DNA of 64,000 nucleotides from Somniosus microcephalus (Eukaryota): contig CM126234.1 of NCBI GenBank assembly GCA_052327205.1, positions 29,698,001-29,762,000 on the forward strand, written 5' to 3'. The position numbers and the translations under genes are program-made. How positions within the stretch are numbered: the first letter of the stretch is position 1; every line of letters begins with the position of its first letter. Under the pieces are notes generated by a model. It was not told where the DNA came from. It did no database searches and saw only the letters and a program-made list of their open reading frames with translations. This document shows positions 54,322 through 57,300 of this stretch, piece by piece.

Positions 54322-57300
54322 ATCATAGAATCATAATACAGCACAGAAGGAGGCCATTCGGCCCATCGAGTCTGCGCCGGCTCTTTCGAAGAGCAATCCA
54401 GTTAGTCCCACTGCCCCGCTCTTTCCCCGTATCCCTGCAATTTTTTCTCCTTTAAAGTGTTTATCCAATTCCCTTTTGAAGGCTACTATTGAATCTGTAT
54501 CCACCGCCCGATCAGGCAGCGCGTTCCAAATCCTAACCACTCGTTGCGTAAAAAGGTTTTTCCTCATGTCGCCTCTGGTTCTCTTCCCAATCACCTTAAA
54601 TCTGTGTCCTCTGGTTATCGACCCTTCAGCCATTGGAAACAGTTTCTCTTTATTTACTCTATCTAAACCCATCATGATTTTAAACACCTCTATCAAATCT
54701 CTTAGCCCTCTCTGCTCCATGGAGAGCAACCCAGCTTCTCCAGTCTATCCACGACACTGTATTCCCTCATCCCTGGAACCATTCTAGTAAATCTCTTCTG
54801 TACCCTCGCCAAAACCTTCATGTCCTTCCTAAAGTGTGGTGCCCAGAATTGGACCCAATACTCCAGCTCGGGCCGAACTAGTGTTTTATATAGATTTAGC
54901 ATAACTTCCTGGTTTTTGTACTCTAGGCTTCTATTTATAAAGCCTAGGATCCCATATGCTTTCTTAACTGCTTTGTTAACCTGTCCTGCCATCTTTAAAG
55001 ATTTGTGCACAAGCACCCCCATGTTTCTCTGTTCTTGCACCCCCTTTAAAATTGTACCATTTAGCGTGTATTGTCTCTCCTCATTCTTCCTACCAAAATG
55101 TATCACCTCACACTTCTCTGCGTTTAATTTCATCTGACATGTGTCCGCCTATTCCACCAGCCTGTCTGTCTGTCTTGAAGTCTATTACTTCCTCACTGTT
55201 TACTACAGTTCCAAATTCCGTGTCATCTGCAAATTTCGAAATTGTGCCCCGTACCCCCAAGTCCAGGTCATTAATGTATATCAAAAACAGCAGTGGTCCA
55301 AGTACTGACCCTTGAGGAACGCCACTGTATACCTCCCTCCAGTCCGAAAAACAGCCATTCACCACAACACTCTCGTTTCTATCCTTTTCTATCCTTTAGC
55401 CAATTTTACATAAGAACATAAGAAATAGGAGCAGGAGTAGGCCAATCGGCCCCTCGAGCCTGCTCCACCATTCAATAAGATCATGGCTGATCTGATCCTA
55501 ACCTCAAATCTACTATCACTACATCCCTCCTGAACCCATGTGATCTCCTGGGAGAGGCGAAAAACCAGATGAAAAAACCCAATGGCCAATTTGGGAGAAA
55601 AAAATCTGGGAAATTCCTCTCCGACCCATCTAGGCAATCGAAACTCGTCCAGGAGATCACTGTCCCTATATTTTCTACAGTACTTACCTTCTGTAAAAGG
55701 TGATCTCCACCCCAGCCAGGAACAGGAATAGAACCATCTCCTGAAATCTAACACATAATTAGAACACAAGAAGTAGGAGCAGAACCAGGCTACACGGCCC
55801 CTGGGCCCGCTCCGTTACCCACAGGGCCATGACCGTTCCGAACATAGACTCATGTCCAATTTCCTGCCCGCTCCCCGTGACCCCTAATTCCCTTTACTTC
55901 TAAGAAACTGTCTATTTCTGTTTTAAATTTATTTAATGATGTAGCTTCCACAGCTTTCTGGGGCAGCAAATTCCACAGACCTACTACCCTCTGAGTGAAG
56001 AAGTTTCTCCTCATCTCTGTTTTGAAAGAGCAGCCCCTTATTCGAAGATTATGCCCCCTAGTTCTAGTTTCACCCATCATTGGGAACATCCTCACCACAT
56101 CCACCTGATCAAGCCCCTTCACAATCTTATATGTTTCAATAAGATCGCCTCTCATTCTTCTGAACTCCAATGAGTAGAGTCCCAATCTACTCAACCTCTC
56201 CTCATATGACCACCCCCTCATCCCCGGGATTAACCGAGTGAACCTTCTTTGTACTGACTCGAGAGCAAGTATGTCTTTTCTTAAGTATGGACACCAAAAC
56301 TGTATGCAGTATTCCAGGTGCGGTCTCACCAATACCTTGTACAACTGCAACAATACCTCCCTGTTTTTATATTCCATCCCCCTAGCAATAAAAGCCAACA
56401 TTCCATTGGCCTTCTTGATCACTTGCTGCACCTGCATACTAACTTTTTGAGTTTCGTGCACCAGGACCCCCAGATCCCTTTGTACTACAGAACTTTCCAG
56501 TTTCTTGCCATTAAGATAATAACTTGCTCTATGATTTTTCCTGCCAAAGTGCATAACCTCACACTTTCCAGTATTGTATTCCATCTGCCAAATCTCTGCC
56601 CACTTACTTAGCCTGTCTATGTCCCTTTGCAGGTTTTTTATGTCCTCCTCACTCACTACTTTCCTTCCCATCTTTGTATCATCTGCAAACTTTGATATGT
56701 TACACTCGGTCCCCTCCTCCAAATCATTAATATAGATTGTAAAGAGTTGGGGACCCAGCACTGACCCCTGCGGAACACCACCAGTTACTGATTGCCAGTC
56801 TGAGAATGAACCATTTATCCCAACTCTCTGCTTTCTGTTAGATAGCCAATCCTCCACCCATGCCAGAATATTACCCCCAATCCCATGATTTTTTATCTTA
56901 AGCAATAATCTTTTGTGTGGCACCTTGTCAAATGCCTTTTGGAAGTCTAAATACACGACGTCCACTGGTTCCCCTTTATCCACCCTGTATGTTACTTCCT
57001 CAAAGAACTCCAGCAAATTTGTCAAACATGACTTCCCCTTCATAAAACCATGCTGACTTTGTCCTATTAAATTATGTTTATCCAAATGTCCTGTTACTGT
57101 CTCCTTAATAATGGACTCTAAAAATTTTACCAACCACAGATGTTAGGCTAACAGGTCTATAGTTTCCAGCCTTCTGTCTACTGCCCTTTTTAAATAAGGG
57201 TGTTACATTAGCAGTTTTCCAGTCTGCCGGGACCTTTGCTGAGTCCAGGGAGTTTTGGAAAATTATTACCAATGCATCCACAATCCCTACCGCTACTTCC

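Follow-up and report, generated by a model that had tools for sequence, protein, structure and literature searches.

A conserved RNA structure resembling a poly(A)-clamping stability element in the 3′ untranslated region of some vertebrate CR1 retrotransposons

Elements for nuclear expression (ENEs) are RNA structures built of U-rich internal loops that lie between short helices, beside G-C pairs and near 3′ ends (PMC13541005, PMC7583470, PMC12707130). Runs of U are their defining feature (PMC13541005, PMC7583470), and they are on record from viruses, from MALAT1 and NEAT1, and from plant, fungal, slime-mould and stickleback retroviral transposons (PMC7583470). The ENE of the Arabidopsis retrotransposon Evade (Copia93) raises RNA half-life and copy number of this plant element and is a tested precedent for stabilisation and mobility (PMC12501189). 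The tails of CR1/L2-type long interspersed nuclear elements (LINEs) have been described with a terminal hairpin alone (PMC4316615, PMC8665684, PMC3747384). No ENE in CR1 or in any other LINE was found in the literature searched, the tables of the main ENE surveys lying outside its coverage. CR1 elements are among the most abundant repeats in non-mammalian vertebrates. Here we analysed a 64,000-nt stretch of the Somniosus microcephalus genome (contig CM126234.1, positions 29,698,001 to 29,762,000; hereafter the window), vertebrate DNA with many LINE fragments, in which the 3′ untranslated region (3′UTR) of a young CR1 copy contains a U-rich fold-back structure (hereafter the module). On balance we lean towards reading it as an ENE-like RNA stability module, present in the 3′UTR of some vertebrate CR1 lineages, which clamps a poly(A) tail that is added in the flank and never copied.

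The module is in sense orientation within an intronless LINE and close to its 3′ end; it begins 190 nt past the stop codon of open reading frame 2 (ORF2) and ends 132 nt from the 3′ end of the element, where about 130 nt had been claimed. Its letters and stems were placed at 55660→55540 of the minus strand, exactly as in the preliminary description. All four helices (11, 7, 6 and 5 bp) are perfect, each pair having been checked by script and all being Watson-Crick by inspection. The stems of that first drawing therefore stand, but the hairpin P2 had been overlooked, and the real shape is a three-way junction (Table 1). A descriptor of a U-rich loop between perfect stems, composed after the feature had been seen, matches twice in the window, both times in the module and nested. 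In 562 block-wise dinucleotide shuffles, single matches occurred at 0.20 per window and nested pairs not once (0), so the architecture is far beyond chance. The folding z-score is -4.06 for the 121-nt module and only -1.67 for 161 nt including flanks. The lower loop has C-G pairs above it and, below, two invariant G-C pairs set behind AA / YG; the upper loop likewise has C-G above. Two U-rich internal loops between G-C-rich stems, as expected of ENE architecture, are present in the window copy, separated by the short 6-bp duplex P4 in the manner of a double ENE (dENE).

Homologs of the module were sought by running a degenerate motif pattern over metagenome contigs, which gave at least 108 loci. 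Four of these (L014, L033, L040 and L063) lie in amniote host DNA and are 78-95% alike. They probably come from a bird, since the CR1 end in L033 appears by eye to be of avian type. All four retain an outer helix in different letters, P2, the 7-bp lower stem and a C-G-rich upper stem, and their lower loop reads AAUUUU / UUUUUUG. There is one U-rich loop per amniote repeat: the second (U6/U6) loop is absent in all four copies, and with it the two-domain arrangement of dENEs. Across 15 named pairs in five sequences, every one of 74 cells is paired (74/74) and 4/15 pairs have changed on both sides; only one shuffle in 500 scored as high, and slid alignments reached 41-64%. In P3 alone, 3/7 pairs are altered on both sides relative to the amniote copies. 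U runs are conserved on both sides of the lower loop, the loop AA and the bulged G are invariant in the alignment, and so are GCC in P2 (5/5) and the apical-loop GGC (5/5 first copies). Seven of the 74 cells read G.U in sense orientation, where the opposite strand would have A-C mismatches, so the structure is one of the sense-strand RNA, and it is under selection. The stems and U tracts, on whose conservation and covariation the preliminary description had staked its reading, are both conserved and covarying between the window and the four amniote contigs. That description had also put the U6/U6 loop at the core and thought of one CR1 lineage; the deeply conserved part is instead the lower loop with P2, the U6/U6 loop occurs on the shark-like side only, and the presence of the module in four amniote contigs removes the restriction.

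Among the matches listed (78 distinct pattern matches), the 7-bp P3 occurs in 4/4 homologs and in 0/74 others, and the homologs hold four of the five top scores for the upstream 26 nt, which the pattern leaves unspecified. The other 104 of the at least 108 metagenome loci were dropped as pattern-selected chance, and so were the non-vertebrate matches, which score at most 29 bits against 122-137 for the homologs (themselves the training set of the model). Pattern scans gave 3, 0 and 0 loci in viral contigs, 0 and 3 bacterial loci in genome contigs, and one short match in plasmids; the ORF2 protein had no match in viral contigs. Pair counts from a further alignment (A3) were left unused because it was fitted to the model and 10/18 of its rows are sub-significant.

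At the amniote loci the module is repeated at a spacing of ~170 nt. Second copies score 36-53 bits in 4/4 loci, with G-C pairs directly abutting the loop, and third copies are decayed. In one of the four loci, L040, the module is preceded at ~870 nt, in the same orientation, by a decayed CR1 ORF2 (E 0.011-0.066 on 7.6 kb), which by eye resembles the group F consensus sequences in the PMC4316615 supplement; of the group F CR1 lineage, birds keep remnants only (PMC4316615). An intact module beside a decayed ORF2 suggests that the host retained the module, the scan itself having selected for intact motifs, and makes these loci a candidate host-adopted RNA element or gene family. In L040 these features are recorded at sense 227-336 and 1160-1620; L014, L033 and L063 are likewise GC-rich and carry the module three times. 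L014 also has a long A-rich, purine-rich repeat at 1730-2454, starting ~480 nt downstream of the module in a position that the other loci do not share.

The stretch was found in 14 sequencing runs from five organisms, with word shares of 0.36-0.79, and reads or contigs were mapped for 4 of 24 listed runs; six RNA metagenome runs with small shares form no part of the evidence, and the depths given are not copy numbers. Summed over contigs, depth in organism D is 1.6-3.4 million at 55542-55637, resembling that of ORF2, and 5-96 thousand at 55662-55757. In one contig of this organism, the module and the ORF2 end are 26 letters apart (joint 55660→55855); this linker repeats the first part of the module, its junction plus P2 (TTTCGATCG), and is thus a tandem duplication on a small scale. 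In organism B, the similarity of 5/8 listed contigs is confined to a segment from 55524-55538 through 55652-55667, at ~85% identity, and two of these five continue beyond the module with dissimilar sequence on both sides. The module is multi-copy and conserved as a unit in these related genomes, its similarity borders coinciding with the outer helix while its flanks are exchanged. The variants listed comprise 40 of 171 substitutions and 12 of 21 indels. Among them, five substitutions fall in the module: two preserve pairs (55549, U-A to U.G; 55636, where ~90% of copies have C on the sense strand and U.G becomes C-G in P2), two affect unpaired positions, and one, at 55582 in organism D, breaks the top pair at the end of P5. 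Both listed indel sites within the module fall in U tracts, whose length differs among copies.

As regards known ENEs, the dENEs of plant and fungal transposons, with TWIFB1 of a rice hAT element as an example, are closest to the window copy in having two U-rich loops with a short duplex between them; like the module, they sit close to the 3′ end of a transposon RNA that has no introns, and one side of their lower stem is irregular (PMC7583470, PMC13541005). The module differs in its host, a vertebrate non-LTR element (one without long terminal repeats, LTRs) whose copies have no poly(A), and in the additional P1/P2 junction; moreover, it conserves the lower domain, whereas the upper domain of TWIFB1 gives most of the activity there. 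For the adenosine triad and the 3′-end binding pocket of dENEs, the invariant AA and the bulged G of the module are candidates only. The Evade ENE likewise has four U tracts in a fold-back between the ORF and the 3′ end (PMC12501189); Evade, however, is an LTR element with its own polyadenylation, which the host of the module is not. The ENE of KSHV PAN resembles the amniote copies in that short helices flank just one U-rich loop, close to the 3′ end, but its U5/U5 loop sits right on G-C pairs and its poly(A) site is defined, whereas the module has AA before the U's and its poly(A) site would fall in the flank. Finally, the terminal stem-loop and microsatellite of CR1/L2 elements, the tail of stringent LINEs, exemplified in sharks and rays by HER1 and its short interspersed partner HE1, share the 3′UTR with the module and are also a conserved RNA structure, from which the module is separate, lying farther upstream and being optional. 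The module motif had 0 matches in the PMC4316615 supplement, whose alignment is trimmed mid-UTR, and 0 in one supplement of PMC8665684; motif words searched in full-text literature returned unrelated papers only.

The vertebrate ENEs of MALAT1 and MEN-beta (NEAT1_2) are, by eye, like the module in their GGAAGG lower stem and in the CC/GG that opens the upper stem. The human MALAT1 ENE starts GGAAGG-U-tract-CC and ends GG-U-tract-GGCCUUU, a frame that by eye matches the amniote copies (PMC6633196); the likeness extends to the 3′ U-tract followed by G(G)CCUU and is closest, again by eye, in the second amniote repeats (PMC6633196). MALAT1 differs in its ~10-nt U tracts with a C.G-C triple and in its encoded A-rich strand and mascRNA; no such features were found for the module. 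Of the encoded A-strand and the tRNA-like mascRNA/menRNA that mark MALAT1 and MEN-beta there was no sign: the element has no A-tract, Rfam gave no match, and no tRNA was called in the amniote loci. Nor are these loci MALAT1-type matches themselves, because bird genomes hold just one each (PMC10869381). Common descent of the module and MALAT1 is not established, and convergence is possible. The boldest form of the idea would make the module an ancestral jawed-vertebrate ENE that CR1 spread with the help of a tail borrowed from the flank, that was swapped between families, kept and repeated in birds after CR1 decay, and became the source of the MALAT1/NEAT1 triple helix; we hold this to be improbable.

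From its architecture and conservation we infer that the module may work like an ENE, although membership of that class is not yet established. As first claimed, the CR1 end has no poly(A): the window element finishes in two TTCTTATG repeats. Neither A(A/T)TAAA nor any A-run over 4 occurs in its 443-nt 3′UTR, the closest hexamers lying 280 and 754 nt beyond the end of the copy. Since the 3′UTR has no poly(A) signal, the CR1 transcript would pass into the flanking DNA and be polyadenylated at a host signal. The tail would then fold back into the U-rich loops to form U.A-U triples, ~3-4 in the lower loop and up to 6 in the upper one, with A-minor contacts at G-C pairs adding to the docking; once docked, it would slow deadenylation and nuclear decay. 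Reverse transcription would begin internally, at the terminal hairpin and short repeat, as in stringent LINEs (PMC3747384, PMC4176376), so that poly(A) would never be copied and genomic copies would end in repeats. With polyadenylation in the flank and reverse transcription from the terminal repeat, the lack of genomic poly(A) would be no paradox.

Several observations weigh against this ENE-like reading. The drawn fold is the minimum-energy fold solely for the 72-nt arm (-24.8 kcal/mol); the whole 121 nt favours a rival fold (-48.4 against -46.7 kcal/mol, a gap of 1.7), and the inner helices P3 and P4 have a pair probability of ~0.03 in the whole window copy. In the conserved loop, two A's stand between the G-C pairs and the 5′ U-tract, and the pairs just below the upper loop are U-A and A-U; in Evade, the G-C pairs abutting the U tracts, only partly present in the module, are essential (PMC12501189). 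P2 and the conserved apical-loop GGC have no explanation in an ENE. Nothing in the window reaches the Rfam gathering threshold, and at relaxed E only chance-level matches of miRNA or snoRNA type appear, and no ribozymes. The covariation comes from five sequences, which count as two lineages rather than five because three of the four double changes are differences between the window and the four amniote rows taken together. Furthermore, the module is optional and dispensable for CR1, as short-UTR forms exist without it: at five other CR1 3′ ends of the window the UTR is short and lacks the module, and short forms skipping 346-362 nt including the module are present as RNA and DNA.

The RNA reads bear on the same point. 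They cover the module in 2/2 RNA runs, at mean depths of ~340-430 and 660-1150 (strand and source unassignable). We observed no poly(A) consensus at 55408, where loose RNA read ends are heterogeneous (agreement 0.34-0.35), and no pile-up of RNA ends in the element, at its end or beside the module; these reads are mostly tail-sharing repeats and read-through and neither show nor exclude a tail further downstream. In organism B there is no RNA enrichment, the ratio of module to upstream UTR depth being, by a crude measure, ~0.2-0.25 in RNA and 0.2-0.6 in DNA. Downstream of the module within the element, A-runs never exceed 3 nt, and a third strand is not evident. Thus, of the ENE proposal made for this CR1, the conserved and covarying structure stands, while poly(A) and an enrichment of module RNA are not seen in the reads.

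The conserved letters outside the ENE frame (P2, the invariant AA, the bulged G and the apical GGC) would suit a protein-binding structure, in which ORF1p or ORF2p, an export factor or a U-rich-RNA-binding protein occupies the U loops and aids the packaging, export or localisation of CR1 RNA. Proteins of stringent LINEs do bind 3′ stem-loops (PMC4176376), and the module lies 40 nt upstream of the recognition tail. We give this account some weight but consider it clearly less probable, as short-UTR CR1s without the module are abundant as DNA and RNA, the far deeper coverage of the tail shows that the last ~90 nt are enough for mobilisation, and the loop is doubled on the shark-like side or tandem-repeated in the amniote loci, as in stability elements. 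The three-way junction, GCC of P2 and the apical GGC could instead belong to a compact tertiary fold with another job, such as self-cleavage, 3′-end processing or an exonuclease block, the two triplets pairing with each other and the U loop serving as a hinge. Both triplets are invariant (5/5 each, GGC in first copies), and L014 shows 8 nt of complementarity between the two regions, whose pairing gives the fold of lowest energy; invariant letters, however, yield no covariation, and the junction letters differ between the lineages. Rfam gave no match to a ribozyme at E up to 5-10, inspection of both strands by eye revealed no hammerhead core, and RNA ends do not accumulate in or beside the module; such a fold seems unlikely. 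An antisense hammerhead, prompted by GAAAC-NN-GUC, was rejected: it has no CUGANGA core, and the motif is absent from the amniote copies.

We attach very little credence to the view that the module is of MALAT1 type and takes its third strand from an A-rich tract encoded in the genome instead of from a poly(A) tail. The stem letters resemble the MALAT1 ENE and A-runs do occur 480-750 nt downstream in L014 and L063, but their positions are unshared among the four amniote loci and the window element has no A-tract; in addition, no tRNA gene was called in the amniote loci (by ARAGORN, which may miss mascRNA) and Rfam gave no match to mascRNA or MALAT1. It is just as hard to believe that the feature is a motif at the DNA level or a neutral inverted repeat carried by the element. 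The plus strand does have a perfect NF-kB-type site, GGGAAATTCC, at 55608-55617, and the window copy alone does not adopt the drawn fold. Such sites are nevertheless at chance level in the window (4 observed, 7.6 expected), the strict site is lost in the amniote copies, and the compensatory changes, the G.U pairs on the sense strand and the conservation against diverging flanks require selection on RNA structure.

Table 1. Positions, in the window, of the module, of its parts and of the CR1 element that carries it.
Feature	Position	Strand	Remarks
Module	55540..55660	(-)	Three-way junction closed by P1, 11 bp (55660-55650 with 55550-55540)
Hairpin P2	55623..55639	(-)	GAUYGCC ... GGGUC, bulged G; paired in 5/5 sequences, one double change
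Lower ENE-like domain	55551..55622	(-)	P3 (55622-55616 with 55557-55551, 7 bp), loop AAUUUC / UUUUUCG, P4 (55609-55604 with 55570-55565, 6 bp)
Upper ENE-like domain	55571..55603	(-)	Loop U6CU / U6C, P5 (55595-55591 with 55582-55578), apical loop AUUGGCCA
Young 5′-truncated CR1 LINE	55408..57405	(-)	Inserted in ORF2 of an older CR1; 5′ border approximate
C-terminal part of CR1 ORF2 (reverse transcriptase), 430 aa open up to its stop	55850..57142	(-)	Pfam RVT_1, E 5e-25
Degenerate second copy of the CR1 3′ tail, upstream	55758..55813	(-)	79% identity to 55410-55466 over 57 nt
Terminal CR1 tail, hairpin and TTCTTATG repeats, reverse-transcriptase recognition region	55408..55500	(-)	Common to CR1 ends at 5276-5356 and 20243-20301
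Probable decayed homolog of the module, in the long 3′UTR of an older CR1	6760..6812	(+)	Weak alone

The ORF2 of the older CR1 into which the element is inserted is interrupted near 57478 and picks up again at 55383 (tblastn). From the ORF2 stop codon at 55850 to the element end at ~55408, the 3′UTR holds, in 5′ to 3′ order, the degenerate tail copy, a spacer, the module and the true tail. We take this terminal tail to be of HER1/HE1 type, and the CR1 tails of the window would by this likeness point to a shark or ray. HE1/HER1 is listed for sharks and rays (PMC3747384). Coverage of the terminal tail is several- to thirty-fold above that of the module in 4/4 mapped runs, and in these runs read depth jumps downstream of 55493. 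The two tail copies are joined in reads and in one contig (55490→55837), and the CR1 forms seen in reads and contigs either end at the first tail or are recombined between both, which suggests that a short-UTR CR1 captured the module and tail out of another family. The T5-T7 runs at 55560-55604 of the minus strand would stop RNA polymerase III, and this may explain why short interspersed nuclear elements (SINEs) take from the CR1 tail no more than its last ~90 nt.

A decayed homolog had been proposed at ~6740-6815; it is plausible at 6760-6812, though weakly supported. This segment is the best non-self alignment in the window (score 34; the runner-up has 32) and lies downstream of an ORF2 remnant on the same strand (6447-6608); its covariance-model score is 7.6 bits, with E 1.4 in the window and 0.007 within the 3′UTR of that CR1. 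A model match at 31336-31440 was discarded, being at chance level and past the point where the CR1 at 30.9 kb stops. Elsewhere in the window, a pair of single-exon-like ORFs, presumably ZC3H10-like, lies at 10000-10680 (+) and 35572-36420 (+); both have CCCH zinc fingers and end in a coiled-coil-like part. They are related, ~68% alike in DNA, and form tandem paralogs with 25 kb between them. One SINE-like family is present in at least seven copies, 69-87% alike, at 6293-6412, 33101-33512, 47652-47852, 50296-50416, 51612-51829, 53732-54131 and 61915-62275. A fragmented L2-like LINE at 59685-61800 (entered as minus strand, with frame pieces on the plus strand) is related to 26175-26915.

Even without ENE function, the module is apparently an undescribed conserved RNA structure common to distant vertebrate CR1s. 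If the ENE-like reading is true, CR1 RNA would be polyadenylated downstream and copied from an internal start, and U-rich clamps would have a new home in vertebrate LINEs. The origin of the MALAT1 triplex would become testable. Vertebrate genomes would then hold very many ready-made stability elements that host transcripts could adopt, of which the amniote loci may be one case.

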